From a phage, in the NCBI GenBank assembly GCA_012441205.1, contig GCA_012441205.1_4705.1: 64,000 nucleotides of DNA. One strand, given 5' to 3'. Under the pieces are notes generated by a model. That model searched no databases. It saw nothing but the letters and a program-made list of their open reading frames with translations, and had not been told where the DNA came from. The position numbers were made by a program, and so were the translations under genes. Positions within the stretch are counted from its first letter, which is position 1, and every line of letters starts with the position of its first letter. Shown in pieces: positions 232 through 64,000 of the stretch.

Positions 232-2238
232 TCATAACGTGATTACATCCTCCGGTTTAGGTTCTTTACGCGGTAAAAGCATGTAGTCGATCGGATGATC
301 TGGCTTCATGGTTGGGATATAACTGTTCGGGTTTTGGAACGCATCCAGTTGCTCTTGGTGAGCGAACTTCATACTCAAGGAGCGCATGTTCATGTTCTTC
401 TTGAAGGTACTGAAGTATCGTGTTGTTCCCTGTTTCGGCATGCGATAATCTTTCGTGTGTGGCGAACGAATCATGCTGGCGTAGAGAATAACATCGAGAT
501 GCGAAAGGTTCATTCGCAGACGCTGGGCACACAGACGATGCCAATAATACAGCACGTTTGCAACTTCTTCCGGCGTTGCTTCGTCTTCCGAAAGGAATCC
601 GGCACTGAAAGAACCTTTCCCGAATTTGAACTCACGTTCGATTTCTTTTGCGTATTCCATCATGTTTTTGTGGATTAACGGCATCTGGAATAACGTACGT
701 GAATTGTCCCAATGTTTCAAGTCGAAAATCACAATCCCGTCAGACGTCACTTCCCAGCTATGGCGTTTTAGATAACGGATAAACGCTTTACTCGGTACAA
801 CAGGACGACCGCAGAAATCGAAATTGACTTTGAGCTTACGATAGCTTTCATCTTTCCTGTCGTAAATCTCCATATCGCAAAGCGTCATGTTAAACAAACG
901 TTGCGGTATCAGCGAACTAATTTCTTCCGCTTCGGCTACGTCGTACAACATGTTCGCAAGACCTAACTTCATCTTAATCAGCACGTGTTTACCTTTCAGC
1001 TCACGTGCGAGTTTGATGTCGTTCATGTTCTGGCTGTAGCGAAGGATATGTTGATATTCCGGTGGGATTGGTGCTGTGGATACCGTTGACGAACCATCGT
1101 GGTGTTTGGTAGAAAGAATGTTCTGCGTTACCTGTTGCGAACAGGTACGCGCTGCGCCATCGCCGACATTATCGGTTAGTGCGAAGTTATGACTTAATTC
1201 ACCGTAACACGTTGTACATACCCCAGCAGGATCGGGATGATGGCAATAGTTAACGGAGCGCATGCGTACCGTCGTACCAATCAATTCTTTCATGTGTGGT
1301 TGTATCGCTACCAACGAACCGTCATCACGAATAATGAATCGACCATGGAAGCCACGCAGGTCGGTCTCATCACGGATTGGCATCGGGATGGTCTCTTTAC
1401 TACCACAATCACCAGGATGAAGTCGTTGTACAACCGCTGTCGCTATCTGAAGTTCACGACCGAAATATTCAGACTTTTTAATCTGCTCTTTGTTGAACAG
1501 CAACGATTTCGCCGCAGAACGACTTTCTTTCAAGCTGTCGGGAAGAGAGATCAAACCAGCTGCGTACGACCGCATTACTGGATCACGGAATATCTCGGAG
1601 TTAATATCAGTCAAGAATCCACGCATCCCAATACACTGTAGCACCTGCCCAATCGAAACGTGTTCGGTTCTTACCGCACGTGCAATAGGGTTTGCATGTA
1701 ACGTTTTATCGGTGCTCAGTACCTTGGTCAGTTTCTTGTATGCGCTTTCGATACCTTCACGGGTGGGTTCCGCTTCGGCGATGATTTTCTTAACTTCGGG
1801 GTGTACAGTAATCTGATAAAAATCATCCGCGCAAATCGTTGTTACGTATTCCTCCAACGCATACGTAAAGAAGTTATACACATTGTTAAACATATCGAAC
1901 AATGCTTTCCAGAGAACCTCACGATTCTCTTGTGGGTAAGCATACATGCATTGACGATACGCGGCGCTTTGCAACGCAACCGATGAACCCGCTGTGAACT
2001 TGCGTTTATCAACCAGGTTCTCTTTTGTCAGTGGTGTCTCAGGATACATGCGATGCACAGACCAGTGCATGTAACTAAAGAAAATGCGTCGCGCACGTAA
2101 TTCATGAACGCCATCGTCCATCTCGATATATACGCGGTCATTAGGCTGTGCCCACTCGAATACCTCATCAACCGGCCAGTGCATAAGCTCGCGTGCCCTC
2201 ACACGACGTTTCGTGGTGGTCGTCTGTGTTGTAGTCAT
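232..2238 (-). CDS. RNA polymerase beta-prime C-terminal-like subunit (split RNAP)
   Basis: 668 aa; ...AGVCTTCYGELSH...GAARTCSQQVTQNILSTKHHDGSS matches the bacterial beta-prime segment CAHCYGRDL...[27 protein letters not shown] RBS upstream. Confidence 0.7.
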   Translation of the reverse strand: MTTTQTTTTKRRVRARELMHWPVDEVFEWAQPNDRVYIEMDDGVHELRARRIFFSYMHWSVHRMYPETPLTKENLVDKRKFTAGSSVALQSAAYRQCMYAYPQENREVLWKALFDMFNNVYNFFTYALEEYVTTICADDFYQITVHPEVKKIIAEAEPTREGIESAYKKLTKVLSTDKTLHANPIARAVRTEHVSIGQVLQCIGMRGFLTDINSEIFRDPVMRSYAAGLISLPDSLKESRSAAKSLLFNKEQIKKSEYFGRELQIATAVVQRLHPGDCGSKETIPMPIRDETDLRGFHGRFIIRDDGSLVAIQPHMKELIGTTVRMRSVNYCHHPDPAGVCTTCYGELSHNFALTDNVGDGAARTCSQQVTQNILSTKHHDGSSTVSTAPIPPEYQHILRYSQNMNDIKLARELKGKHVLIKMKLGLANMLYDVAEAEEISSLIPQRLFNMTLCDMEIYDRKDESYRKLKVNFDFCGRPVVPSKAFIRYLKRHSWEVTSDGIVIFDLKHWDNSRTLFQMPLIHKNMMEYAKEIEREFKFGKGSFSAGFLSEDEATPEEVANVLYYWHRLCAQRLRMNLSHLDVILYASMIRSPHTKDYRMPKQGTTRYFSTFKKNMNMRSLSMKFAHQEQLDAFQNPNSYIPTMKPDHPIDYMLLPRKEPKPEDVITL

Positions 2239-2383
2239 TATTGCTTTCCGATTTAAATGGTTTTATCATACGGTTTACCAAATCCGTTGGACTTTACTAT
2301 CGTTGTGATAGCATCGGGAATCCCTTCCCTTAGGTTATGTAGGTGTTAATATATCTCCACTGCTGACCTTTATGTCGGCAGCA

Positions 2384-2869
2384 TTATCCAGCTTTCTGTT
2401 GTAAAGCGTATGGATCCATAGCGTCAGACATATCCGCAAAAACGGTGAGAATAAACCCCTTTATCTGTCTCACCTCGGTTACACGAAGCCCTTTATCATT
2501 ACGATATACGTTTTCTTCACCGACCAACTTCGGCCTGATAGCATAAACCCCATCAACAAACGGGAATGTCGGATACGGATAAATACCGATACGAATGATG
2601 TTTGGGTGATCGCCTAGAAGGTCACGTCCAAACTTATCGACTCGACCATAAATCGTTCCATCCACACCTTCCACTTCAATGAGATCATTTCGAATATCCT
2701 GAAATAGCTGCTCTAACGTGTCGGCGGGATACGCGTATGCGACGCCTAACGCTGGATCCTCAATGGTTTTGACACTGAATCCGTTAAGCCAAACAATCCG
2801 TTCGTCCGCCCATGTTTCTTCATATACCGTTAATCCATCGCCGTATATGTTGGCGTGTGCTATCTCCAT
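2384..2869 (-). CDS. hypothetical protein
   Basis: 161-aa ORF, GAGGAAA RBS upstream of ATG. Confidence 0.5.
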   Translation of the reverse strand: MEIAHANIYGDGLTVYEETWADERIVWLNGFSVKTIEDPALGVAYAYPADTLEQLFQDIRNDLIEVEGVDGTIYGRVDKFGRDLLGDHPNIIRIGIYPYPTFPFVDGVYAIRPKLVGEENVYRNDKGLRVTEVRQIKGFILTVFADMSDAMDPYALQQKAG

Positions 2870-2983
2870 AATCTCATTTCCTCTTATACGTTAGGATAGA
2901 TGACATGTTGGATATACGTTGCCTTTGCATATATTGCTTTATTTCCGTCAGAAATAACGGAAAATAAAAACAACGACATAGTT

Positions 2984-3013
2984 CCCTCCCACCTCCACAT
3001 GGGAGAGGGAGGG
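2984..3013 (-). terminator. hairpin CCCTCCC/GGGAGGG followed by U-run on minus strand
   Basis: 7-bp GC stem, T-rich tract downstream in transcript sense. Confidence 0.5.
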
Positions 3014-3026
3014 CTATTCGTGTTTA

Positions 3027-3389
3027 TTACTCTATGCTGTCTTCTTCAACACAATCCTCTTCGGAACCGTCGAACGTTTTCTGCACTGCGGTGGTATCCC
3101 AGTTGGCAGCGTAATCAGCCATCGCTTCGCGCAGTGCTTCTTCACCAGCATCACCAGCCAGGTCAAGCACAACCAACCCTTGCGCGACGTTTTGAGCGAC
3201 AGTATCAATAACGGTCGCATCTTCTTCAAAACTACGTACCGGTTCAATGGTGCCTACATCAACAGCATAGTTCGTGGTCGCTGTAAGCACGGCGACTTGT
3301 AGCGCGTCGCTATCTTCATCATGCAATGCTGCTTCAATACCGATTGGACGGGCCAGTTCTTGCAGTGTTAATTTGCGAATTAAGTTCAT
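3027..3389 (-). CDS. hypothetical acidic protein
   Basis: 120-aa ORF, GAGGAAA RBS, followed by hairpin and T-run. Confidence 0.5.
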   Translation of the reverse strand: MNLIRKLTLQELARPIGIEAALHDEDSDALQVAVLTATTNYAVDVGTIEPVRSFEEDATVIDTVAQNVAQGLVVLDLAGDAGEEALREAMADYAANWDTTAVQKTFDGSEEDCVEEDSIE

Positions 3390-3411
3390 TATGTTTTTCC
3401 TCAGGTGAATG

Positions 3412-3762
3412 TTAGCAATCGTTTAAAACTTTTTCGATACGATGGTTGACGAGTTCATTGAACGACTCTTCAACTTGTTCGATAATTTCATCAACGTCGA
3501 TATCTAATTGTTGGGGTTGGATAACATGCTCTTTCATGGTTTCTAGCCAGTATTCGGCTTTAACCATAACGTTAGCTACTTGTTCGACCTGGCTGCGTAT
3601 GTCGACGATCTGGCAGTCAGGATTTTTAATATCGATGATGTGCCCGTGCTGATTGATAAAGCCTAGCTTATTCGACGCCTTTACCGCATCGCGGGCAAGT
3701 TCTTGCAAGATTAAATTATTAACGTAGTTCACTGCTACGGAACGATTTTCGTTATCACTCAT
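3412..3762 (-). CDS. hypothetical protein
   Basis: start moved to internal ATG (MSDNEN...) preceded by AAGAGGA; the longer ORF N-terminus overlaps the upstream hairpin. Confidence 0.45.
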   Translation of the reverse strand: MSDNENRSVAVNYVNNLILQELARDAVKASNKLGFINQHGHIIDIKNPDCQIVDIRSQVEQVANVMVKAEYWLETMKEHVIQPQQLDIDVDEIIEQVEESFNELVNHRIEKVLNDC

Positions 3763-8257: not shown

Positions 8258-9844
8258 TTAGAAGTTGCCTTTGGTAGTTACCGCATCCACCAGGTTAAAC
8301 AAATCAACACTCAGCTTGTAAACCTCCTGCTGGCTACGGTTGAGCAGCGGGCTGTATGCAGATGGGTTGATGTTCGGCATGGTGTACGGAATCGGTGCGG
8401 AGCCGTCAACGCTGATCTTGAACTGGCTGTCCAGGAACAGGTTAATCGCGCCGCTCACCATAACCGCATTCGGGTTGTTACCCAACATGGAGGGTAGGAT
8501 ATTGGTAATCATGTCAGAACGCATTTGTTCAGCAGCACGGTTACAATCGTATCCTTTAATGAACGGTACAGCGTCGGTAACCGCAACCGCCCACTGACCT
8601 GGCATGATACCGAGTTCTGGGTGACCATGGTTGTCAGCAATGAAACGGAACGACTCCAACATGCGATACGTCATCGCAGCAGGCATCATTGCAGCAAGCG
8701 ATGAGCAATACAGCGTTGGATAATCGATCACGTCCCAGCTCTGGCTGTCGGTAGGCATCCAACCAAACTCGGTGGTTGCTGATGTACCACGACGAGCTTC
8801 CACATACGGGAATAACGTTAAGACGTCACGGATATGTTCACCGAACATCCGTTTCATGTCAGCCCAACTCAGGCTACCGCTGAAAGCGAATCCTTCATCA
8901 CGCATAATCGCACCGAATACCGGATGCGCAACCAGAGGTTCTTCACGAACAGCTTGAGCGGCTTCCACGTAAATATCCTCGTTCTCTGCGCTACCTGGAT
9001 GAGACCCGCTTTCGTACGTCTGACGAATAGCTCCAACATTATCGAAGGCTTTTCTCAGATAGATGGTTGGGATGTTCGTATCAGCACTAGCTGGTTTGAT
9101 TTTCTCTGTTGCGAAACACATAGCTGCTTCCACACCACGGAAAACCGGTTCCGGTTGCGGTGGATAGGATGTACGATGAACCACATCAGCGTAGGCTGGA
9201 TCGAACTGCTGCATCACGTTCTGCATGGCTGGGTCCATGAACTGGTTATCAAAACCACCATTACCTACCCAACGTGCTGTTGATGCATAGGTCAGCGTAT
9301 CCTGAACACGAGTACTGAACTGAACATCACGATTAACAGGGTCGTATGCGCCGGTCAACAGGTTCGTTGCGTCCATCGGGGTTGCACGAACGATTTGCTT
9401 ACCGAACATATCCGTCGTGGTTGTTTCGGTTACCTGGATTACGTTCGTGAAGAAGAACACCAGTTCGTTCGGCAGATCGATAGCACGCGTTGTAAACGCA
9501 TCGAGACTTACAGAATGGTCGGTGTATCCAGAAATGTAATGGACGCGCTTGGTTCCTGGTGCAAGGGCCAAGGATTCTTCTACAGCCATCATGAAATGGA
9601 AACGGCGTGTGCCCCAACCATTCGCAATCTCCGAAACCCCCTCAGGTTCTGCAGACTGCTGCAACAACCCGGTTGCAAGCTTATTGATTGCTGATGGTGT
9701 TGTTGCCGTACCGAACCGCGTCGTGTTAATAAAGTCTTCGATGCTACGCATGCTATCTGCGTGGAATCGTAGCGGACGACGCTGTACGTTGTTGTACGGT
9801 GCGGTTTCAACCATCAGGATTTCACGAACATTCATCGGGATCAT
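8258..9844 (-). CDS. hypothetical protein
   Basis: 528-aa ORF; its start abuts the stop of the upstream gene. Confidence 0.5.
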   Translation of the reverse strand: MIPMNVREILMVETAPYNNVQRRPLRFHADSMRSIEDFINTTRFGTATTPSAINKLATGLLQQSAEPEGVSEIANGWGTRRFHFMMAVEESLALAPGTKRVHYISGYTDHSVSLDAFTTRAIDLPNELVFFFTNVIQVTETTTTDMFGKQIVRATPMDATNLLTGAYDPVNRDVQFSTRVQDTLTYASTARWVGNGGFDNQFMDPAMQNVMQQFDPAYADVVHRTSYPPQPEPVFRGVEAAMCFATEKIKPASADTNIPTIYLRKAFDNVGAIRQTYESGSHPGSAENEDIYVEAAQAVREEPLVAHPVFGAIMRDEGFAFSGSLSWADMKRMFGEHIRDVLTLFPYVEARRGTSATTEFGWMPTDSQSWDVIDYPTLYCSSLAAMMPAAMTYRMLESFRFIADNHGHPELGIMPGQWAVAVTDAVPFIKGYDCNRAAEQMRSDMITNILPSMLGNNPNAVMVSGAINLFLDSQFKISVDGSAPIPYTMPNINPSAYSPLLNRSQQEVYKLSVDLFNLVDAVTTKGNF

Positions 9845-9845
9845 T

Positions 9846-11432
9846 TTATTTTTTTCCTCTTAAATTTACTACGTGTTCATTTAATCGAACAACTAATTGC
9901 ACAAGCTGCTGACGGATATCTGCTGGACAAAGCATCAATCCTTTACGGTCAGCTGGGACTTTCTCAAGGATTTCCGGGCCTGCTGCTGAAACATCCCAAT
10001 CCCATTCACAAAACGCATCGGCCACCATGTTAATACCGACAACCGGTAAAGTTGTACGTTCATCTTCATACATGGCGTGTGGATACAATTTATTGACAGT
10101 AATGATCTCCTGTGGTTTTAATTGGTGGATAATCTGATAAACATCGTCGCGTTTAACCTGGATACCTACGGTAAGCGCTGCCAGTTGAGGAAAACCCCAA
10201 TGGTCTAACAAGCACGCTGCGATGGCTAACGCTTTTGCCTGATGCACGGCTTCAATCGGTGCCAGACTTCTCGCCGGAAGATGGCTATCAAGCAACCATT
10301 GTGCCAGTGCTCGGCATCCGCGGTTGATTGGTTTTAACTCAACGGTGTCATCGTGTTTAGCGTACGTGTATCCATCGTAACGTTTTGCGATACGCGCATA
10401 CATGTCTTCAACTTTACCGTAAGGTGCCGTTTCGTCGACGTCGTGCAACACACGTTCCATCTGGGTAAGATAGGCGATGTCAAGAATGAGTACACGCGGT
10501 GAACGTTTATCTTTCACCATCAACGCATCGATCACGCCTTGACTGTCTTCATCTTGCGCGTTCCCTCGTGGGGTTTTCTCACGAATCGGTCCACTGAAAC
10601 GTCGTTCCGTACAAAGGTTATTCACATAGCTAAAGATTAACGTTACCAGATGCGTACAACTCACTAACACCCCATCTTTAACGACAGGCTGTACGGCTTG
10701 GTCCAAGTCGCGTACGGCGAGACGGCGGACGATGGCTTGTGAACGCAACCAGCCAGGCACTTTCTCCGTCGACATGTAATCCACGGTCATCGACAGCGTG
10801 ATCTTTTTATCACCCGTTTGTGCGCGGATATAGTCTTCCAGTCGGTCGTAAGCGGCGATATCGTGAATGCGTGTTTTATACATCAACGACATAGCCACTT
10901 CTTCTTTACGAACCGTTCCGTACGTTTTCCCTGCGTCAATCAGAAACTCTGCCCAAATCGGCACCATCAGACGGACGTAGATCGCTAACGCCGTTAACTC
11001 AACGTAATCATTTCGTAAATAGGTTTTCTCAGGAATATCATCCTCACCTAATGTTGTTTTCATGTCCGGCGGTAATTTTACCCAACCTGGGGTATTACAC
11101 AACGCCAGAATCTCTTCGTACACAACCGGTTTGTAAATTTCACCAACAGCGCGACTCAACTCCTCCATTTGTTGTTGTGGAGCAATGTAGTTATCCATCG
11201 CTTCACGTGCTTTAACGAACCCTTCGAAGATGTCGTCAATTCGACGTGGGTTCTTTTGTTCTATCCAGGCGAGATACTTGTTAATCTCCCGCATCTGATT
11301 GCTAGCCATATCCCCATCAATCTTGATGTAACCCTGGCCTGAAAATTCCACAGTACGTCCATCACGGTGTTTGATGAGATAGTGATCCAGCTTTTCTTTT
11401 CCTTGCGTCGTAATGACGGGCACTATGTGCAT
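9846..11432 (-). CDS. hypothetical protein (downstream of a TATATTACC promoter-like element)
   Basis: start moved to ATG at 11432 (MHIVPV...) preceded by AAGAGG; the annotated N-terminal extension runs into the structured intergenic region. Confidence 0.5.
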   Translation of the reverse strand: MHIVPVITTQGKEKLDHYLIKHRDGRTVEFSGQGYIKIDGDMASNQMREINKYLAWIEQKNPRRIDDIFEGFVKAREAMDNYIAPQQQMEELSRAVGEIYKPVVYEEILALCNTPGWVKLPPDMKTTLGEDDIPEKTYLRNDYVELTALAIYVRLMVPIWAEFLIDAGKTYGTVRKEEVAMSLMYKTRIHDIAAYDRLEDYIRAQTGDKKITLSMTVDYMSTEKVPGWLRSQAIVRRLAVRDLDQAVQPVVKDGVLVSCTHLVTLIFSYVNNLCTERRFSGPIREKTPRGNAQDEDSQGVIDALMVKDKRSPRVLILDIAYLTQMERVLHDVDETAPYGKVEDMYARIAKRYDGYTYAKHDDTVELKPINRGCRALAQWLLDSHLPARSLAPIEAVHQAKALAIAACLLDHWGFPQLAALTVGIQVKRDDVYQIIHQLKPQEIITVNKLYPHAMYEDERTTLPVVGINMVADAFCEWDWDVSAAGPEILEKVPADRKGLMLCPADIRQQLVQLVVRLNEHVVNLRGKK

Positions 11433-18331: not shown

Positions 18332-18556
18332 TTAGCAATGGTTGTTAGTTGCTTCTATTTCGTCAAGATAAGGTTCTACGTCATCGCCCTCCACGAATTC
18401 GTTGAACCAACAGTCAATAGTGGAAATAACCGGTGACTGGTGTTCACATTTCTTAGATACCTTAAAAGGTACGTTATTATCCATCATACCGAGTTCGGGT
18501 CGAAAACGCCCGAAATGTTTCGCAGTCCAAATGTCTGGGACGATATGGTTGTTCAT
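18332..18556 (-). CDS. beta-prime N-like subunit, exon 3 (MNNHIVP...)
   Basis: MNNHIVP...GMMDNNVP...SPVISTID aligns with beta-prime QMAVHVP...LMMSTNNI...PIIVPSQD directly after DFDGD; in frame with the micro-exon. Confidence 0.55.
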   Translation of the reverse strand: MNNHIVPDIWTAKHFGRFRPELGMMDNNVPFKVSKKCEHQSPVISTIDCWFNEFVEGDDVEPYLDEIEATNNHC

Positions 18557-18916
18557 CAATATCTTCAATACGAATCGCTACTTCGTATCCGCAGCATTAC
18601 CTGCAGCTCCTGGTGTTACCAGGATGTTGAGAGTATATCATGTCCATATTCCAAATGGAACGTAGGACTTCCGCGCTGGATCTCGCTTGAGACCACTTAC
18701 TCGTTGAACGTTCTCCTAAAAGGAGCTTCGCTGCTGATTGGACATTGTTACGTACGGTAGGCGTCCCACTAAAGGGATTTTCATTGAAGCCGCGTACATC
18801 CGTTACCTTGTTTCTACCTTATCGGTTCCTCTTACGAGGCGTAACGGCTTTAGCCTATTCCAGCAATTCACGGAATGCATATTCTCCTTTTCAGGAGATA
18901 AGGCCATGGCTCTGGC
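18557..18916 (-). mobile_element. group I self-splicing intron 2 (ORF-less, about 360 nt; 5' boundary approximate)
   Basis: diverged tandem copy of intron 1 with the same P/Q/R/S order; P7 pairs compensate (GAGUA/UACUC versus GAUCA/UGAUC); 3' end GAAGATATTG| before ATGAAC. Confidence 0.6.
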
Positions 18917-18931
18917 ATCACCGTCAAAGTC
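18917..18931 (-). CDS. beta-prime N-like subunit, 15-nt micro-exon GACTTTGACGGTGAT (DFDGD)
   Basis: joins in frame to exon 1 to rebuild NADFDGD; the 5' splice site of the following intron is not resolved, so the exon could be a few codons longer. Confidence 0.55.
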
Positions 18932-19281
18932 CACGTATCTTCAGTATGAATCGCTACTTCATACCCGCAGCATTACCTGCAGCTCCTGGTGTTACCAGGA
19001 CGGAGAGATCATCTCATCACCCACGAAGGGTGTTCCGCGCTACCCTCAGCGAATTCGAGGGACATGATCGTTGAACCTTCCACCGATGATCGATGGCTAG
19101 GCTGCTGATTGGACATTGTGCGTTGGGGTGGCATCCTGGTTCAGGACTGTCATTGAAGCCTCCCAACATCCACTCACTTATTTCCGCCTCATCGGCTCCC
19201 ACAAGGGCAGAGTGGCTTTAGCCCGTCTCAGCAATTCACGGAATTCAAGCTCTTCCTTTCGGAAGGCAGGGCCTCATTTGA
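18932..19281 (-). mobile_element. group I self-splicing intron 1 (ORF-less, 350 nt)
   Basis: exon ends GCU| with a possible U.G pair in P1 (GCUUC/GAGGC); P-like GAATTGCTG, Q-like AATCAGCAGC, R-like GTTCAACGATCA, S-like GATGATCTC; 3' end GAAGATACGTG| before GAC. Confidence 0.7.
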
Positions 19282-20532
19282 AGCGTTGTATCCCTTAAGG
19301 ATCATCACGCTTAACCCGATGGTGTTATCCTGCGGATCGCGTTTAACCTTGGTGATTTCAAGACATTGGTTACTGCTTCGGTCAAGTGATGGGTTTCGAA
19401 CAAAGCCACACACAATCCCATCGAACGGTGTATCAGCAATAAGCTCATCGTGCAGCTCGCTCATCATTGGATGATAATTACGGACATGTTCCGCAACGAA
19501 CGCACGTGCTGCTCTTGGCGAATAACCACGATGGAATAACTTGGATTGGATATGTTCTTTATTGGTTAAAGTAAATGGTGCGTATGGGAAATGCAGATGA
19601 TAATAACGATGGTTTGCTGTTATCGAACTGATTACGGTACGCGTGGTGAATGGATGTAATGTACCTAATATGTTTTTACGTGTGATACCTTTCTTCTTAC
19701 CAATGAACTCATCGAAAATTGCTGCGTGGTATTGCAGTAGCTTCAATTGTACTTTCGCCATCCAGTTTTCTTTCTTTCTGGCGCTCAAAGGTGTTGTTGG
19801 GTGATAGATACTATTCAACGTACCGATAGCATCGATCGCACCTTCCATTTTGCTATCTGCATAACGACCGGTTGGCGTATTCTCGATAACGAACATCATG
19901 GCCGCAGGAAAGCTGATATACTGACTGAAGAACTTATCACGATGGATACGGATGAATTCTCGTAGCGTGTCAACTTTCTCCGTGTTCTTCGGTCCACGTA
20001 ACGTAGGTCCTTTATACAAGATCTCCATGATGCGATCGAAGTTCTGTATAAAGCTATTTACGCCACGTCGTATCCCGAATACATCGAATTGCTGCTCCAG
20101 ATAGTTCTTGAGTTCGATGGGTCGTTTTACATTTGGACGGTAACTGGCATCAATGAGCCACGTCATCGTTTCAAAGCTTTTGATATTCAACTCGCTTGCC
20201 AGCACGAGATGGACCAACGGGTTAATGAACGCATCAATTCCTTCAGGAACACGCGCCCAAACCGTCGAACGAATCTCTTGTTCTGCTGGATAGGTTACAA
20301 CCGTTTTACAGTTCGGACACACCGTACCGAGCAGCTCACCACGATTGTAGAAACCACAACCACATTGTGGTGTGATATCCAACGTATCGCTGGAGTAAAC
20401 ACGGGTGATAAAACTGTTTAATTTCTTCTTCTCTTCGACGACTTTTGTATCGTAATCATTCAACAAAATCGGCGTGAAAGGAAGTTCTGCGAGCTGTCTA
20501 TCGAAACTCACGATATCGAGCATGATGGCCAT
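19282..20532 (-). CDS. RNA polymerase beta-prime N-terminal-like subunit, exon 1 (ends ...KGYNA)
   Basis: zinc-finger CGCGFYNRGELLGTVCPNCKTVV matches beta-prime [41 protein letters not shown] matches NLLGKRVDYSGRSVI; the ORF runs to GYNA and then reads through into intron sequence. Confidence 0.75.
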
Positions 20533-20624: not shown

Positions 20625-22520
20625 TTAGAACAGGTTGAATGCCCCACCCATGTTGTTAACGCCAACATTCGGACGATCGCTACGTGCGTAGATGTTACCG
20701 GAGATGTTACCCAGACCACGAGCACGTGCTGCCATGTTACCACGAACAGCGGTACCTGCCAGATGCTGGATGTTCTCAGGACGGATGGTGAAGCCAGCAT
20801 CAGCAGCGGCCTCGATCAGCGCCTGCAGTGCTAACGGATCGAAGTCGTAACGCATTGCCCAGCCGGTTTGTTCCCAGCTACCAGACAGAACACGATCAAT
20901 GATTTCGTGACGAGCGACAACACGCTGAGACATCGTCATATCGGTACGGTCGAAGCTGTCTTCCCAAGCTTCTACGGTATCCGGGTTAGTGATGTTCATC
21001 ATGTACAGATCGTCCATATCACGAATATCGTGACGGTGACCATCCTGGTGGTTATAATGACCCAGCGGGATACGGTTACCGGTAGCGTAGACCAGTGGTG
21101 CGCCGTACTGATATTTCTTGCTGAAGCAACCCAGGGTAGTATCATCGAAGGCACGGAAGAGTGCTTTGTAACCTTCGGAGATTTCCCGGACTTCACCTTC
21201 AACTTTGCCCGTATAGATCTTCTCAGCCGCCGGGATCATACGCAGCAGCCAGCTGTATTCGCCTTCTTCCGGTACGTCGATAGAAATCAGCAGAGACGGA
21301 TACAGTACCTGTTGCAGGAACTTGTAAATCTGCTCGTTGGTTTGAGTAGACAGATCCAGCGGTGCGGTAACTTCCGGATCCAGTACCATCGCCAGAGCAC
21401 CCGGGTTATGCGGACCAATACCACGAGCAGCGTTGCTGATTAAAGACTGTGCCCACGCCATACCGCTGTTCAGCGTAGCGATGGTGCCAATCAGACCCAA
21501 CACGAAAGTGTTCGGCGTGAACGCATCCAGCTCCAGCGGGTAAGCGCTGGTCATCACGTAACGCGGTTGGTATTGTACAGTCGGCGGTACCGGATAACCG
21601 TTAACCAGAACAGGGCCTTGGTTGAAGGTCGGGTTCTGCGGGCTGTAGGTCAGGTCAATGTAACCGGTGGTTGCGACCAGACGCTGCTGACTATCGTAAT
21701 CGCTCATCGCTTGACGGATGCGGTTAGAGATAGTTACAGTGATGTCAGAACGCACAGGGTTACCAACAATATCGCTGTCCTGCATACCGCTGGTGTTGTA
21801 CTGAACGCTGCTGATTGGCTGATCGCTTGCCATCATGCCCAGGTTGAACTGCGGCAGACCCAGTTTATCGCCGAGACGGATTTCGATCGCGGTTTGGATT
21901 GCGTTATCTGCAGCAGACAGCAGGGTGGTTGCCAGATGCGCAGATTCAGCGGTGATTTCATTGGTCACCACAGCCAGACCAGCGATACGAGCAGTACCAT
22001 TAGACTTACCACCGATAGCTGCATACATTGCCGCCATGACTTCGTTGATGAACGTACCGTTCAGGTTATCAACCCAGGTACGCGGCACCAGAATGTTACC
22101 ATGCGGGCCTTGTTCTTCACGACGCGGCAGCGGAGCCAAACCGGCAACCAGTGGAAGCACATAACCGAAGAAGTGGTTATGGTCACCAACTTTTGCACCG
22201 CTCATAACAACCAGGGTCGGATACGGTACACTGTATTGGTTAGGATCGACGGTCACCATGATGAAGTCGTCTTTGAATCCTTTATCTTCCAGTTCTTTTT
22301 CCATCAGACGACGGAGATTCAGTACCTGCTCGGAGCCAGTATTACGGCTAATACGACGGCTCAGTGTACGGTTGATCGTACGCATCGTATGAGTTACTTT
22401 AGGCTGGCCAGCAAAATCTGCAGCGGTTTCCAGCGCCTCATCAGCACGTTGTGCGGTGCGGGTTTCAGCTGCACGAATTTCTACATTATCGTTACCGTTA
22501 TTACGTACGTCTAAGCCCAT
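20625..22520 (-). CDS. abundant early protein, candidate nuclear-shell (chimallin-like) protein
   Basis: 631 aa with flexible N/C tails, strong AAGAGGAA RBS, TATATTACC element about 75 nt upstream, lies directly upstream of the beta-prime-N gene; identity not verified. Confidence 0.35.
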   Translation of the reverse strand: MGLDVRNNGNDNVEIRAAETRTAQRADEALETAADFAGQPKVTHTMRTINRTLSRRISRNTGSEQVLNLRRLMEKELEDKGFKDDFIMVTVDPNQYSVPYPTLVVMSGAKVGDHNHFFGYVLPLVAGLAPLPRREEQGPHGNILVPRTWVDNLNGTFINEVMAAMYAAIGGKSNGTARIAGLAVVTNEITAESAHLATTLLSAADNAIQTAIEIRLGDKLGLPQFNLGMMASDQPISSVQYNTSGMQDSDIVGNPVRSDITVTISNRIRQAMSDYDSQQRLVATTGYIDLTYSPQNPTFNQGPVLVNGYPVPPTVQYQPRYVMTSAYPLELDAFTPNTFVLGLIGTIATLNSGMAWAQSLISNAARGIGPHNPGALAMVLDPEVTAPLDLSTQTNEQIYKFLQQVLYPSLLISIDVPEEGEYSWLLRMIPAAEKIYTGKVEGEVREISEGYKALFRAFDDTTLGCFSKKYQYGAPLVYATGNRIPLGHYNHQDGHRHDIRDMDDLYMMNITNPDTVEAWEDSFDRTDMTMSQRVVARHEIIDRVLSGSWEQTGWAMRYDFDPLALQALIEAAADAGFTIRPENIQHLAGTAVRGNMAARARGLGNISGNIYARSDRPNVGVNNMGGAFNLF

Positions 22521-56841: not shown

Positions 56842-59800
56842 TTATTTGGCGTCGTTAAAATAAATATCAACAGCTCGTTCCGTTGCGTAGAGGAGACCAA
56901 GATTCACAGTCCCAACCACTTCCGGTGAACCGATGATACGGTTAGCGATACTGGTGCCACTGAAGATAGCATCAAGGGTGTGCCCGTCTTCGGTTTTGTT
57001 CACACCATGACCCACGGAAGAGACAACGGATTTCGCTTGAGCTGCGAAGGTACCTTTATCGCCCATCCCCGCACCAAGGTCGTAACGCATGAAAATACGG
57101 ATTGCGATCTGGTTCTCGCCTAACGGATTACCGTCTATTCTCACGTTACTGTTATTGATACGCCCCGTAGTTGCTTCGTTGAGTTTCAGTTCCTTAACGC
57201 GTTTAGCTCGCGCTTTATCTGCATCACCGACGAGCGCCGCCATGGTTTCACTCATATCCTCAATCTGAGCGCGGTACAGCACATCGATCTGTACAACTTC
57301 ACCATGAACGTCAGCACGTGGGTTATACTGACTCATACGACGTAATGCTTCAACGGCTTCCTGACTCTCATCACTCAGATCGGTCGCAATCGGTTCTTCC
57401 AGTGTTGCAAGGATCGTTCGTGGTTCAACATGATCGCCGATTTTCACGAGACCACGAATGTTGAGATGGGCGTCAACGATGAGCGTACGGCTCTTAATCG
57501 ATGGTGTTACGAGACGATCGGCAAGATTGTCGAAGATATACGAACTGTCCTCGTGAGTCTCTGGAATATCCAGAATACCGACAAGAGACAGAACACCTGC
57601 GCGCCAAACAACCTGACCTGGGTTCCACCAATCGCGTTTAAAATAAAGACGATGGAAGACCACCACATCCTGATCCTTAACGCGATCCCCGACTTTATAA
57701 TCGGTAATGAGATCGTGAGGATAATACTTACCTGGTCCTTTCCCGATTATCGTACCGAGCTGGAAAACCTCTTCCCCTAACTCTGGATCGTCGTATTGTA
57801 TCGTCAGCGCAGTTTTGGTGACCTTCTTAACAACACCGTCACCTTGGGCGGCAGCTGCAAAGAGTTTACCAACACGATGCGCGATGACAGTCTCACCGCC
57901 GGTGCGCCACGGTTGTACATCGTAACCCTCAGCGGCAATCATGCGGTTGTGTTGGATCCCGACGAAGACCAGACGTTTTCCATCATCACGGTCTACAGCC
58001 GGAACAGCTAACGCTGACGTACTCATTACCGATGAGATGCCGTCTGTCTTTTCATCGAATGGTCGTGTTTCACCATACACCGACACGATATTAGCATTAG
58101 GTGCAAGGTAAGCAGAGATACCCACATCCCCACTATCTTTCGTACCCTCTGACACAATACCAACATCGGACTTGTCGTATTCACGATCACGTGCGCGTCG
58201 AAGCGATGTCTTTGAACGACCCCCGATACCGGTCATCGTTGCTTCTTCACCCTGCTTGATATCCAGCATCGGGTTGGTTTCATCGATCACGATGGACGCG
58301 CTGTCGTCGAGAATTTGGTTCCAGACACTTACCGGACTGATTGAGATTTTCTGGCGGTTTCCTTGACTGCTGTTCTCATTCTGACGAATAGCGCCAACCA
58401 GATCCTTATACACCAATTCAGCGAACTTATCGTACGTTTTAAAACGTTGGTAGTTCACATCGTTCGTGTTAGGTGCCCAATCATCCAGAAGCAGTTCAAC
58501 AGCACGCAGTAACAACATGGCGAAATCGGTAGGTTCTCCCATGTTCTGTAGCAACGTACGGCTTACCGGATCAACGAAAAGACGCTCCATGAGTTCAAGT
58601 TCGCGTAAATGGCGAACCTTAAGTCCGGCACCATCGACAACGTTAAAATAGATATCTCGATTGTCGAAAGCACCGCGAGCGTAACCGATGTAGTTACGGT
58701 ACTCGTTAAATCCGCCCAGCAACAACGTCGTCATGCGATCGTCTTTACTGAAGATCAAACTTTCGTCATCAAAGCTCACCGCGAATTCATCGGGTGCTAG
58801 ACCCATACGAGAACCGCGAGGTACCGTACGATAGTTCGCTTTAAGATGTTCTAATAACGGGGTAAGTCCACCCAGATAACTTAGAACAACACCAACCGGA
58901 ATACGTACACCCATGAATTCAAGATCGGCGGCTTCGATCGGCATCTTAGCCGCATTGATACCGAAGAAATCAGGGAACGTCCCTACAGGTGTTGGTGTTT
59001 GTCCTGACTGACAGATATAGAGCTGATTGCGTTTATCGATTGCTAAGAATTCACCCAGCGTGTTACGCGCAAACGTCAGGAGCCCTTCGGCTAACTGTTC
59101 GTTGAACCGATCTTCCCCGATGAACTCCGGTAGCGTTTTTATATCGAGACGTATATCCCAATCAGCAAATTGGATTTGGGTATAGTTGCGTGCAAGCACA
59201 GCGAAGTAATACGGGACTTTGACGGCCGGATCAAAGACGTTACCACGTTTTAACGTGGTTAAGGGTGAGGACTTATCGTAATACATCGCTGTAAGTTGGC
59301 GTGTTAACCAACGACCGGCGTTATTAACGACACGCTCTGAACGTTTAACAAACACCTTACCGTAGGCGGTACTCAACGCAACTTCGGATGATGATACCTT
59401 TCTAATAGGTTTATCAACACGTTGTTTACGCATCCGGTATTTGATGCCGTTAACGACATAAATGCCGTCCTTACGAACCTTCGGCAACATCACCGGGAAC
59501 GTGGTTGGGACACCGCCTACAGGGGCCAGTTTAATCGTGATGACTTGATAATCCCCCATCACGTCAACAACATCTTCAACTTTATATCCCGTGACAGGGT
59601 AACCTGCCTGTTGTACGGCAACAACAGCGGCTGCGATGTCCTTTTGCATCACGTGTTCAACGTAATGTTTATCCCACACCGCAAGCGTCGATTTACATAG
59701 GCTCTTATCGACGATAACATCCGCTTCCGGCATAACCTTTGCTGGCGCTAATTTCGCGGCTTTTGGTTTAACTTCAACATACTCAGCAAGTGTTAATCCA

Positions 59801-61188
59801 GAACCGTCGGGTGCTTCGATTTCATGGATGGCGTCAGCATTACGCATCGCTGCTTTATATTGGACGCCGCTTAACTGACCCGCATCAGCCAGATCGCTCG
59901 CGCGTACCAACACCGCATCCGATAACGACTGAATATATTCACCGTGCGTTTTTGGTAACGTTGCCGCGTCAAAGACATCAACCTTTTCTTCTTCGGTATC
60001 GTCGGTAACGACTTCGAAGAGATCGTCGGTAATGTCCTGATCTTCATCAGGTTGAAAATCCGGCTGTACTTCTACCCCGGGTACTTCACGGACATCTTCG
60101 AACGAGCGTTCTACAATGGCGTTCCACGCATCAGCGTCATCGTCTTCATCCGACCCACCAACCAACTCCGCTTCTAACTCATCGGAATCAAGAACAGTGG
60201 CCAGATCCTCACCGTTAGGAAGCACGACGTCGCGATCATCGTACTCTGCATCCGGGCTGTCCGCAAGAATATCTCGCTCTTGACGAAGAACCTGTTCCTC
60301 TTCTTGTTTCTGTTCTTCTTCATTCGCGCTCTGCGACCATAGACGTGTTACCGCCATCATCCAACGACGCTGGAAGGTTTCGAGTGTCGTTTTATCGAGT
60401 TCTTCCCCTTCCTTTACAAGCCCGGTACGCCATTCTTCCAACAGGCCGAGATTCAGCGTAAAGAAGTACACACCGTCTGTAAATACAACGTTAAGCTTAT
60501 CCAGCGTGGCTCTGTCTAACGAAGCCATTGTGCTGTTCTCACGATCGGTTCCCAACCAGCGGAAGAAGTCAAAGAACGACAGCTCCTCCGGCGTGGCGAA
60601 ATTCATGAGGTTGTTACGGGTCGGTGCCTGTTGCGTGGTACGCATCAACGAAATCTTCGGCAATGTTGACGGTATACGGAACAACAAAAAGTGTTGGCGA
60701 TCGCTTTGCTGCGCGATTTCGTTGGCTTTCGACCAAATTGTTTTACGTACGTTGAACCATTCATCATACCAACGGGTGAGCGTTGGACGATAGATGTACA
60801 TGTGGTTAAGATGTGCGTAGTTAGCAACGATCTGAGCGTTGATGTTTTTCTCCACCGTACTTAGATCGGTAACCAAACGAAAACGACGATGTGACGCACG
60901 ATAATCCAATTTCGCTCGTGGGAGCTGGAATCGCTGATCACGTCGAGGTGCACCCTGTTTGGTTGCGAGATCATCAGCAAACGAAATCCATAGTTGAGCA
61001 CTTTCTTTACTCAACATGTATTCGTTTTCTGGAGGACCTATCAATGAAGGATCCGTTGCGGTGTAATGATAGACAGCATAACGTGGCAGCTGCAATAGCT
61101 GCACTAAACGTAATCTCGGTGACAATAGCTCTTGGTATCGTCTGACGCCAAACTGTCGGTAGTAATCAAGGTATTTAAGTTTTGCCAT
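56842..61188 (-). CDS. RNA polymerase beta N-terminal-like subunit with about 500-aa acidic N-terminal extension
   Basis: [14 protein letters not shown]...AGRWL matches beta [20 protein letters not shown]...RGSWL; [32 protein letters not shown] matches [43 protein letters not shown] matches LIPFLEHDDANRAL; ends after a GDK...GHTLDAIFS segment matching GDKMAGRHGNKG...GTPVDIVLNP. Confidence 0.65.
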   Translation of the reverse strand: [1448 protein letters not shown]

Positions 61189-61191
61189 GGG

Positions 61192-61371
61192 TTAGGCTCC
61201 ACGAGGTCCCGTTAAGTTGCGTAATAGGAACGCAACCGTATCGTAACCAATATCGATGTTGAATTTATTTTTACCACTTACCCAGAAAGCTCGCTTCTTG
61301 TGCGAGTTGGTAATTTCGTCAATAGCTTCCATGGAATAAAGAACGTTAACCGAGACCGTATCACCGTCGAA
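61192..61371 (-). CDS. second beta-prime N-like subunit, exon 2 (FDGDTVSVNV...)
   Basis: in-frame continuation after the intron; FDGD-TVSVNVLYSMEA matches FDGD-QMAVHVPLTLEA; stop lies 3 nt before the beta-N-like start. Confidence 0.55.
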   Translation of the reverse strand, partial: FDGDTVSVNVLYSMEAIDEITNSHKKRAFWVSGKNKFNIDIGYDTVAFLLRNLTGPRGA

Positions 61372-63353
61372 CCTTATCTTCGCCTCAGGTCGCTACGCTG
61401 AGACCGCCTGCATGGATACGTACATCACAGGCTGCTTGCACTTTCATGCAAGAGGAGACTATATCAAACCGGCAGCACAACCTGCTACGGTAACCTACAC
61501 TTCGAAGACGCTCGTCCTCTACAGGGTGGTAAATCCCTTAGTCGTTGAACCTGCGTTGTTTCCCATTCTTGCAAACAAGAATGCCGTATTGCTACGCAAC
61601 AACCAGGCTGCTGATTGCCCATTGTTTCGCACCTTAGCACCGCTTACGCGGCTTTTCTTTCAGCCTAAGCCTCTTACGGAGTTAGTGCATCTCAACTGTT
61701 GTTTCTGCCTTTCGGCACCTCATGGGTCGTTGAGCTTTAGGGGTTCCCAGCAATTCGTAGGTTTTTCAAGCACTCCCTTTCGGGAATACCGGACTCATTA
61801 TTAGCTTATTTATTCAAGTATCTGAAATCCCACTTATCTTTACGTCGTTTATCGCACTTAATGTCAGGATGATTAACACGATGCCTAATAGTTGTTGCCG
61901 ATAGCTGGCTGAGATTCTCAGCAGATCGTGCGCCAAGAACAACGAGTTTTGTGTCGTCTGGACGCGTAACTTCTACTGCCCGATAATGCTTACGTAACAC
62001 ATCACGCCAATATTCACGACGTTCTGGTTCAGCATACTCAAGCATGTAACCGTTAACATCTACTAAACCGTAGCTTTCGTTTAATCGAGAGGTAGCGGCT
62101 GGTTTACTAATACCGATTGCTTTAGCCGCATCGACCACGGTTTTATACGGGGTCTCATTACCGTCTCTATCTACAACCACAATGAAATCTGGACGTGAAT
62201 CGAGTAGCTGCTGTCTGCGTTCGACGGCTTGTTGATGAAGCACCATGTTAACGTGTTCGAACCCGTAACCTTCTGGGCCACGCCATCCTGGATTGTTGTT
62301 CGCTCGATAAAGTATCGTCGATGATTTCACTCCAGTCTGACGCGATGCCTCGTTTGCGCTATGAACAACCGTGGTAGAGCCATCAGGATGATATATCCGT
62401 ATCTGGTTCATTATACCGGAACCAATGAAGTTACCATCGGCTGATTTAATGTCCGGCCATGGTTGCGGGTCATCTTTGAATTTAACCACCCAGCGGTTGT
62501 TAAACAGCTTAACTTTTCGAACATGTTTGCCTAATGTCGTATCCGTAACACCTGCGACCACTGACGCTTGTGTAATGCTCAGGTACTCAGTAACGGTATC
62601 GTTCCAAGTATCCCAGAGCAGAACCGGTTTATTGTCGTCACGTAAACCATGTTCGATAGCATGCAGGACATTACGACTTCTGGTTGCCCATTCCAGATTG
62701 TCAAGAGAATAGTTCCACTTATCAGCATCAAGATGATTAACGTCCATCTTATCGACATTAGCCGGATATTCCCGCCACGCCAACATCAAGCAGCGATGTA
62801 AAACCTTAGTTCTCGTTGTATCTCGACAATCGTGACGTAGACTAATGAATACGTAGTTATCCTTTTTCGGATACGATCTGCATTCCTGTCCATCCTTGCG
62901 GGAGATAACTCGCCCTTTCTCATTTATCAGATAACGAGTATGTCCAGGAATAACACGATAACCAGGGTACTTAGCGATCTCATAAGCAGGCTCGAAACGA
63001 TAGGATAAGTTATCAACATCCCAATTAGATTCGTCGCCGTCAACAAACATCGCTTTGACGTACTTCTGTGTTTCAATATCAACCAGGATGTTTTTGTGTG
63101 CGATACAAATCAATGCTGGGATATTGAATTCGCGACCAGCTAAAGTAACAGTGTCGCCGTTTCTCGGTATCGCGACGTGGGTATCACGATACCGTAAGTT
63201 TCCATAGCCGTCTATTTCAATCCAGCTCAGAAACGGAATAGATATAAATTCTTTTTCAGATACTCGCCATTTAAACATATTAACACCTATTAAATAGGAA
63301 ACATCATATTAATAGGTTTAAAAGTTAAAAATGACAGAAAATGGCTAAATTGA
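61372..63353 (-). mobile_element. group I intron 3 (about 1.98 kb) carrying an HNH endonuclease ORF
   Basis: 5' end GAU|UCAAUUUAG... with a 6-bp P1 candidate (GAUUCA/UGAGUC) that includes U.G at the splice site; core after the ORF has P GAATTGCTGGG, Q AATCAGCAGC, R GTTCAACGACTA, S GATATAGTCTCC with P7 GACUA/UAGUC; GNRA-loop P9-like hairpin; 3' end GAAGATAAGG| before TTC. Confidence 0.65.
61806..63278 (-). CDS. HNH homing endonuclease (intron-encoded)
   Basis: VNHLDADKWNYSLDNLEWATRSRNVLHA is a classic HNH motif; own AGGTG RBS; lies between the intron 5' splice site and the ribozyme core. Confidence 0.7.
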   Translation of the reverse strand: MFKWRVSEKEFISIPFLSWIEIDGYGNLRYRDTHVAIPRNGDTVTLAGREFNIPALICIAHKNILVDIETQKYVKAMFVDGDESNWDVDNLSYRFEPAYEIAKYPGYRVIPGHTRYLINEKGRVISRKDGQECRSYPKKDNYVFISLRHDCRDTTRTKVLHRCLMLAWREYPANVDKMDVNHLDADKWNYSLDNLEWATRSRNVLHAIEHGLRDDNKPVLLWDTWNDTVTEYLSITQASVVAGVTDTTLGKHVRKVKLFNNRWVVKFKDDPQPWPDIKSADGNFIGSGIMNQIRIYHPDGSTTVVHSANEASRQTGVKSSTILYRANNNPGWRGPEGYGFEHVNMVLHQQAVERRQQLLDSRPDFIVVVDRDGNETPYKTVVDAAKAIGISKPAATSRLNESYGLVDVNGYMLEYAEPERREYWRDVLRKHYRAVEVTRPDDTKLVVLGARSAENLSQLSATTIRHRVNHPDIKCDKRRKDKWDFRYLNK

Positions 63354-63983
63354 ATCACCACCAAGTCCGGCGAGGTATGGCGCAGGGACAATAGTCGTTT
63401 CTACGAACGAAGCATTAGGTAACCAGTCGGGGTATTCCCATGCGATAAATCGTTCATCCGTTATTGGTTCCCAGTTACTATCCAGTTCGGTTTTCGGTTT
63501 TGCGGCGACGGTTGTACGTGCGTAACAGGTTAACGGGATAACGGATTGCATACCTGATACCGGATAACGTGTTACCATCGCAGCCAGGTTATTCCAGTAC
63601 TTATATCCGGCAATATAGATAAGCTCGGTGTAAGTAATGGGGTGAACATCCGCGCCAGGTTTATTCAACATCTCCGGGGGTAATTCACTCATGTCACGGA
63701 ATAACCGAAACGAATCGTTGTTCACATAGACGAGGCAAAGATATCGTCCATTGACCATGATAGGCTCGTTACGCACGCCAGGATCGCTTAAGGTGTTCAG
63801 TAAACGTTCTATTCCGTCCCATGTTGTAAAGTCATCGATGGTGTCTGGATCAAGCGTGACGCGCTCACGTTCCATCGTTTCGGTATCAATAAGTTCAACT
63901 TCTGTAACATCACGGACAAATATTTCCTGCAAAATACCGGTACGTAACGCATGTTGCGTTACTGGGAGAGCGGCTTTACTCAT
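63354..63983 (-). CDS. second beta-prime N-like subunit, exon 1 (ends ...YLAGLGGD; 5' end may be incomplete)
   Basis: TRYPVSGMQSVIPL matches beta-prime RVDYSGRSVITVGP; the terminal D supplies the first Asp of DFDGD; the last two codons and stop of the raw ORF are intronic. Confidence 0.5.
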
Positions 63984-64000
63984 CTGGTATAACCCTAACT

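Follow-up and report, generated by a model that had tools for sequence, protein, structure and literature searches.

The β′-like reading frame that runs off the end of the 64,000-nt phage sequence analysed here (the window) almost certainly belongs, in a nucleus-forming, Goslar-like jumbo phage, to the gene for the β′-N subunit of the multisubunit RNA polymerase packaged in virions (vRNAP), a gene which is split by an intron, encodes a 548-aa protein after splicing and is cut by the window end. The portion in hand is the 3′ 44% of its exon 1. The frame runs on the minus strand from the window edge (position 64000) down to 63354, and this segment (63354..64000, minus strand) is assigned to exon 1 on its open translation, its identity to positions 8459-9925 of a public contig (L003, below), its match to PHROG 2986 and its placement by HMMER. 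It comprises 2 nt of codon 274 and codons 275-489, ends in ...LAGLGGD and contributes 215 complete codons ahead of the first Asp of the catalytic motif. Position 63354 is the last exon-1 base, the T (U) of the GAT Asp codon that precedes the read-through residues SI and a stop, before the intron. A preliminary description of this DNA, in which exon 1 was considered to be short and to lack the zinc-finger region carried by the other β′-N gene, is partly confirmed: it is accurate for the window itself with respect to its lower coordinate, 63354, which is the 5′ splice site, the codons preceding the catalytic Asp and the absence of a CxxC motif, but the shortness is an artefact of the window edge.

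Identity of the gene and its splice junction

No Pfam model detects the β′-N or the β subunit, and identification relied instead on PHROGs, PDB profile searches and comparison of folds. The motif ...LGGD-FDGDT (a hyphen marks the splice junction here and below) is complete only after splicing and provides the Mg-binding residues D489, D491 and D493; D489, D491, G492 and D493 are invariant in 81 homologues, and the catalytic region aligns to E. coli β′ residues 446-506. The protein ends ∼55 residues after the catalytic motif, just past the double-psi β-barrel (DPBB), an end point shared with cyanobacterial γ and plastid RpoC1. A β′ split after the DPBB domain is common to vRNAP, the non-virion enzyme (nvRNAP) and cyanobacteria, vRNAP β′ being divided into N, middle and C parts (PMC7598289). 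In tblastn searches with the full-length protein, homologues were detected in 310 phage records, 286 of them with a coverage of at least 80%; most align without interruption from query residue 1/7 to 543/544, and several end at residue 489. An AlphaFold model based on 81 homologues has a mean pLDDT of 91, and the best Foldseek match of this model in the PDB is the AR9 nvRNAP β′-N (E 3e-17), followed by bacterial β′, cyanobacterial γ and plastid RpoC1. Foldseek returned 593 PDB matches with E ≤ 0.001, of which the 50 listed all belong to RNAP largest subunits (β′, γ, RpoC1, archaeal A′).

Directly downstream of β′-N lies the 1,448-aa virion RNA polymerase β gene (56842..61188, minus strand), identified by PHROG 3148 (1389.8 bits) and conserved gene order and homologous to Goslar gp207, phiKZ gp178 and 201phi2-1 gp273/274. 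The same arrangement, with a divergent large tail-associated gene upstream and vRNAP β downstream, is conserved in Goslar, 201phi2-1, OBP and phiLC, and gene order and homology thus place the β′-N gene in the virion enzyme set. The record of 201phi2-1 gp275 notes that the protein is similar to phiKZ gp180 and was identified using mass spectrometry, the downstream β being similar to phiKZ gp178, and OBP gp277 and gp278 are annotated as virion-associated β′ and β. Both gp275 and gp277 are 35-39% identical to the present protein over the whole 548 aa, with the same length and neighbours, DFDGD at ∼residue 484 and no zinc ribbon; unlike the window, these phages have no intron at the site. The phiKZ vRNAP consists of GP178, GP149, GP180, GP80 and GP176 (PMC7618050), and five Goslar vRNAP subunits, gp78, gp196, gp205, gp207 and gp210, were detected in virions, gp205 and gp207 by mass spectrometry (LC-MS/MS for gp205; bioRxiv 10.64898/2026.04.21.720040). 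By analogy, the orthologue encoded in the window would also be packaged in the virion.

Within the catalytic motif, the gene is interrupted after the codon for the first Asp and ahead of those for FDGD (GGD-FDGD) by a 1,982-nt group I intron (61372..63353, minus strand), delimited by intron-less alleles on contigs L008-L010 and by comparison of the spliced model with its closest relative, P0005. The 5′ splice site lies directly after U63354, and the intron ends with a G at 61372, giving the borders GGTGAT-TCAATT...GATAAGG-TTCGAC. The group I catalytic core (Rfam RF00028; 61435..61821, minus strand) scores 57.8 bits against a gathering score of 50 (E 5.9e-13, full model 1-253), constitutes the only gathering-level Rfam match in the whole 64-kb window and is followed by 63 further intron nt down to the 3′ splice site. 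Upstream of the core, the intron carries a 490-aa HNH homing endonuclease ORF (61806..63278, minus strand), recognised by Pfam HNH_3 (PF13392, 35.9 bits against a cut-off of 24.8), weak NUMOD1 matches, PHROG 59 (HNH endonuclease, E 1.5e-28) and the Goslar annotation. Exon 2 (61192..61371, minus strand), supported by frame translation, PHROG 2986 and Goslar identity, consists of 59 codons and a stop (FDGDTVSVNVLYSMEAIDE...LTGPRGA) and ends 3 nt before the β gene; the 46-aa ORF within it matches PHROG 2986 positions 499-538. A candidate P1 found by eye pairs exon GGUGAU with intron GUCAUU; the MFE fold chose another pairing and was not better than shuffles (z -1.27).

Joining 63354 to 61371 yields ...LAGLGGD-FDGDTVSV... 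within a 548-aa protein, the junction region of the spliced model reading ...LAGLGGDFDGDTVSVNVLY.... Intron excision restores the frame, and the spliced ORF matches the intron-less alleles. The best HMMER match, P0005, has 548 aa with 2 residue differences from the spliced model and is encoded as one continuous gene on the natural contigs L008-L010, where the 1,448-aa β gene begins 3 nt later. Exon 2 also aligns with the intron-less 201phi2-1 gp275 and OBP gp277, which read L(T/G)(A/G)DFDGD(T/A) straight through, and phiLC exon 1 stops at the same Asp. P0005 and these homologues fix the junction at GGD-FDGD, and the exon/intron reading of the preliminary description is correct. Across the site, the intron-less alleles read GGTGGGGAC-TTTGA(C/T)GGTGAT, with TTTGAC in L008 and L010 and TTTGAT in L009, the L008 site lying in ...GGTGGGGACTTTGACGGTGAT...; the window exons read GGTGGTGAT-TTCGACGGTGAT, and the intron-plus alleles of window and Goslar share GG(T/C)GGTGAT-TTCGACGGTGAT. 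Intron-less alleles are present in close relatives, on L008-L010 and in many 548-aa cluster members on 133-247-kb contigs. Group I self-splicing would be expected to act on this locus by joining exon 1 to the 59-codon exon 2, producing the 548-aa protein; splicing in vivo, like activity of the endonuclease, is predicted here from the sequence.

Three synonymous differences distinguish the insertion site of intron-less from that of intron-plus (window, Goslar) alleles, GGG GAC-TTT becoming GGT GAT-TTC (window 63354..63359 and 61369..61371, minus strand, against 4462..4470 of L008-L010), and one of the three creates the U required before the 5′ splice site. The pattern fits either co-conversion or an occupied site that would be protected from the homing endonuclease.

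A comparable element is the mobile group I intron in the vRNAP β gene associated with ΦPA3 gp210 (Birkholz et al., bioRxiv 10.1101/2023.09.30.560319). Both introns are group I, carry an HNH homing endonuclease and lie beside conserved acidic residues of a virion RNAP gene in a nucleus-forming jumbo phage, with intron-plus and intron-minus alleles side by side among relatives. They differ in that the ΦPA3 intron resides in the β (phiKZ gp178-like) gene and the window intron in the β′-N gene, and in that nicking and a competitive effect were demonstrated by experiment for ΦPA3 gp210, while endonuclease activity is a prediction for the window intron.

The 3 kb from 61000 to 64000 is 88% identical to one phage genome only, that of Escherichia phage vB_EcoM_Goslar, whose annotation runs gp205 'RNA polymerase beta subunit' (502 aa), gp206, Intron_gpI and gp207 'RNA polymerase beta subunit' (1,448 aa). 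Locus, order, intron site and HNH ORF length are the same for gp205 (YP_009820914.1), Intron_gpI (HOV27_gs002), gp206 and gp207, gp206 being a hypothetical protein weakly similar to phiKZ ORF179 and the homologue of the window HNH ORF; the locus of β′-N exon 1, Intron_gpI, HNH ORF and β is therefore already known as annotated in Goslar. Full-length exon 1 shows 99.6% protein identity to Goslar (tblastn, query residues 1-489), and nucleotide identity is 92% for in-window exon 1 and 99.4% for exon 2; the β gene is 96.1% identical. The intron (window 61372..63353, minus strand, against L001 6648..8691) has diverged much further than the gene that hosts it. Identity is 82.7% in the HNH ORF and 87% in the intron core (49 gap positions), and the first ∼20 intron nt are unrelated, so that the read-through tail is SI and a stop in the window and QGKANKMPVFWQI and a stop in Goslar. 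An excess of synonymous change is also observed in exon 1 beside the intron (92% nucleotide, 99.6% protein identity).

Gene callers and GenBank annotate only exon-1 read-through products, of 491 aa in the window and 502 aa in Goslar, as would be expected if the intron copy were a decaying, unspliced pseudogene from which only the 491-aa product (...GGDSI and a stop) is made. We consider this very improbable. Of the three Asp that form the catalytic centre of this essential enzyme, the truncated product would retain only the first, the intron core matches the full Rfam model with a score exceeding the gathering threshold, exon 2 remains in the correct phase and 99.4% identical to Goslar, and exon 1, at 92% nucleotide (in-window) against 99.6% protein identity with Goslar, points to purifying selection. 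In addition, Goslar is viable with the same arrangement.

Exon 1 beyond the window end

The minus-strand ORF list comprises 63345..63983 (212 aa), 61806..63278 (490 aa), 61192..61332 (46 aa) and 56842..61188 (1,448 aa). The 212-aa ORF, which ends ...PAPYLAGLGGDSI and a stop, is called at this length because the ORF listing takes the first ATG after the window edge. Translation from 63998 reveals no in-frame stop between 64000 and the ATG at 63983, and no Shine-Dalgarno is seen ahead of this ATG. The five codons ahead of it, LGLYQ, are identical to the interior of Goslar gp205, which contains ...CTAVQLGLYQMSKAALPVTQ..., and the ATG at 63983 is thus an internal Met, corresponding to Met280 of the full-length protein. 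Since the frame is open to 64000, the shortness results from the window edge.

Profile placement locates the in-window fragment in the second half of a longer protein. PHROG 2986 (539 positions) matches the in-window exon-1 ORF at profile positions 282-484 (E 1.4e-58), and in nearly all of the best 150 representatives, which are ∼540-aa proteins, the HMMER alignment of the fragment covers about residues 274-489. The HMMER search was exhaustive over 1.84 billion cluster representatives and found 379 relatives, of which the best 150 were taken; it was needed because a word-indexed protein search with the in-window spliced fragment returned 4 matches only.

The continuation of exon 1 is observed on Logan contig SRR5814921_166 (L003), reached through the exact HNH protein, which overlaps the window by 12,195 nt with 0 mismatches and reaches 9,278 nt past position 64000. 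On this contig, the exon-1 ORF runs a further 820 nt (273 codons and 1 nt) beyond 64000, up to an ATG located behind a strong Shine-Dalgarno, AAAGAGGAG. The coding start, ATGGCAAAAGTT..., encodes MAKVREPF, the stretch past 64000 being L003 8459-9278 and full exon 1 L003 8459-9925, or 1,467 nt and 489 codons up to GGD. The ORF past 64000 is read from another public assembly, which matches the window without a difference throughout the overlap, and we infer that the genome of the window continues in the same manner; Goslar and a 235-member protein cluster agree with the L003 continuation. The terminal 53 nt of the window had no exact match among IMG/VR viral contigs. NCBI lists a protein identical to the 491-aa read-through product of exon 1, EFE5661923.1 ('hypothetical protein [Escherichia coli]'), encoded on a contig of 198,944 bp. 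Upstream of exon 1, the neighbouring gene is transcribed divergently and encodes a 2,252-aa tail-associated (tail fibre/lysozyme/cell-puncturing) protein. Goslar-like and phiKZ-like jumbo phages use their own polymerases, and for this reason the background-level result of scanning for sigma-70 promoters and terminators near the true start is uninformative.

The preliminary description had offered three possibilities for the missing N-terminal part, namely that it lies beyond the window edge, that it is encoded by a further separate gene or that the enzyme has a reduced β′ N-terminus. The first is upheld by the 820 nt of the same ORF past 64000, as in Goslar gp205. With respect to the last, a genuinely shortened β′-N starting from ATG 63983, with ∼210 residues before the catalytic Asp and the clamp/N-terminal part dispensed with, corresponds to the ATG-initiated 212-aa ORF listed at 63345..63983, the first start codon met after the edge, but we give it virtually no credence. 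There is neither an upstream in-frame stop nor a Shine-Dalgarno at 63983, the codons preceding 63983 are conserved Goslar gp205 coding sequence, the ORF continues for 820 nt in the identical contig, and the ∼274-residue N-terminal part is present in all near-full-length relatives. The preliminary description would have yielded to a clear promoter and ribosome-binding site at 63983 with no β′-like ORF upstream; what is observed there is an ORF that continues, with no Shine-Dalgarno.

[quoted passage not shown] All three rival readings, namely a start inside the gene at Met280, an N-terminal part in a gene of its own, and a pseudogene, were therefore rejected.

The zinc ribbon and the second β′-N gene

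The suggestion of a reduced N-terminus fails for length but holds for the zinc ribbon. The first catalytic Asp is preceded by 488 residues in vRNAP β′-N as opposed to 417 in the nvRNAP β′-N of the same phage. In E. coli β′ the catalytic Asp is D460, with 459 residues before it, consistent with the profile alignment. By comparison with both values, vRNAP β′-N is not reduced in length. A longer insert upstream of the active site has been described for vRNAP (PMC7824862), and this insert accounts for much of what the window shows of exon 1.

The zinc-ribbon feature of the β′ N-terminal half was not found in the vRNAP β′-N of the window, the full 548-aa protein containing four isolated Cys (67, 270, 362 and 432) and no CxxC. 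Among 130 near-full-length representatives, none has a CxxC in the first 150 aa, a lone CAC being present in one, and the number of Cys in this region is none in 94, one in 33 and two in 3. Aligned with plastid β′ (8qma_T), family profile positions 22-53 (...GLFSteiFGrv) correspond to chain residues 33-64 and positions 54-80 (GSeeRderfsyidlktkilhP...) to residues 96-122, the latter stretch being weak alone (-2.2 bits). Plastid β′ residues 65-95 are consequently without counterpart between the adjacent profile positions 53 and 54, a ∼31-residue deletion between the conserved 'IFG' and 'R..(F/M)(S/G)YI.L..P' motifs, and this gap is at the position of the zinc ribbon in β′. The alignments indicate that the zinc ribbon is cleanly absent across the vRNAP β′-N family.

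Absence of the ribbon is not new, as the comparative literature already assigns it to the non-virion enzyme only: phiKZ gp55 binds Zn2+ through four Cys, and AR9 nvRNAP lacks the zinc-binding domain (PMC7618050). AR9 nvRNAP β′-N (PDB 7S00/7S01 chain d), the best sequence and fold match among solved structures, resembles the vRNAP subunit in having no N-terminal zinc-binding domain and aligns to the family profile without a ribbon gap. It differs in belonging to the non-virion enzyme of a Bacillus phage, in its 426 aa and ∼15% identity and in being without the long insert upstream of the active site.

The contrast drawn in the preliminary description with a second, zinc-ribbon-bearing β′-N gene proved to be correct. 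The nvRNAP β′-N exons, defined by alignment to phiKZ gp55, lie at 19282..20532, 18917..18931 and 18332..18556 (minus strand), the first matching phiKZ gp55 (7ogp_A, E 1.4e-60) with the four Cys of CxC...CxxC aligned. phiKZ gp55 (PDB 7OGP chain A) and its window homologue represent a paralogous β′-N half which also ends after the DPBB; they keep the four-Cys ribbon (CxC...CxxC) and have 417 residues before the catalytic Asp, compared with 488 in vRNAP β′-N.

Like vRNAP β′-N, the nvRNAP β′-N of the window has one or more group I introns at the catalytic motif. A 15-nt micro-exon, GACTTTGACGGTGAT, coding for exactly DFDGD lies between what appear to be two tandem ORF-less group I introns, 19281..18932 (350 nt) and 18916..18557 (360 nt). 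The two introns are 70.5% identical, and the Rfam score of each, ∼30 bits (E about 2e-5), falls short of the gathering score. Splicing would give a 496-aa product whose alignment to phiKZ gp55 spans both junctions, the second 3′ splice site being uncertain by one residue. The corresponding Goslar locus (L007, NC_048170 166390-171478, 1840..3633) is ∼1.1 kb longer than window 18557..19281. There, the first intron scores 46.9 bits in Rfam, lies behind ...NADF instead of ahead of DFDGD, and carries the HNH endonuclease gp186; a micro-exon of ∼9-10 nt (DGD) and a second intron follow, the base before the second intron apparently being C, not U. Thus, close relatives differ in both intron insertion site and endonuclease gene presence. 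A 631-aa ORF (20625..22520, minus strand) directly upstream of nvRNAP β′-N occupies the position of Goslar gp246, annotated as nuclear shell protein (chimallin).

Possible recurrent intron sites and the annotated gene product

Gene calls ending at or just after the first catalytic Asp are found for 13 of the best 150 vRNAP β′-N cluster representatives (P0024, P0036, P0046, P0049, P0055, P0067, P0068, P0096, P0106, P0117, P0118, P0126 and P0132), and four of the same 150 end just after DxDGD (P0040, P0079, P0109 and P0128). Among phage records, the tblastn alignments stop at query residue 489 in the phiKZ-like phages phiLC, phi9_PA9 and Koomba boorn-mokiny kep-wari Wadjak 1 and in other jumbo phages such as Xanthomonas phage LucasX, and at residue 491 in Vibrio phage vB_pir03. 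The end points of the cluster representatives suggest repeated intron insertion, among metagenomic jumbo phages, at two neighbouring positions of the motif.

Goslar-like genomes, among them the one that encodes EFE5661923.1, also occur as 130-247-kb contigs in many public E. coli and Salmonella isolate assemblies, where the protein is labelled as a bacterial 'hypothetical protein'. Gene calls among the 235 members of the P0005/P0155 cluster are 491, 502, 510, 520, 534 and 548 aa long, a spread which probably reflects different intron variants together with intron-less alleles.

These observations are useful for annotation. All that public records list for this gene are truncated read-through products of exon 1 (491 or 502 aa, 'hypothetical protein'), and the correct product is the 548-aa spliced protein with the full catalytic triad. 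In the genome the gene is whole, and absence of the zinc ribbon characterises the vRNAP family in its entirety. More speculatively, and with rather more doubt than conviction on our part, ribbon loss in the vRNAPs of all phiKZ-like phages, whose paralogous non-virion enzyme retains the ribbon, may be functionally meaningful, and several distinct group I introns may repeatedly have used the DFDGD codons of the two β′-N genes as a landing site. The significance of ribbon loss is already implied in the comparative literature, and the intron landing site is an extension of known homing biology. If true, ribbon loss could give a different RNA-exit/upstream-fork architecture suited to factor-independent early transcription in the injection vesicle.
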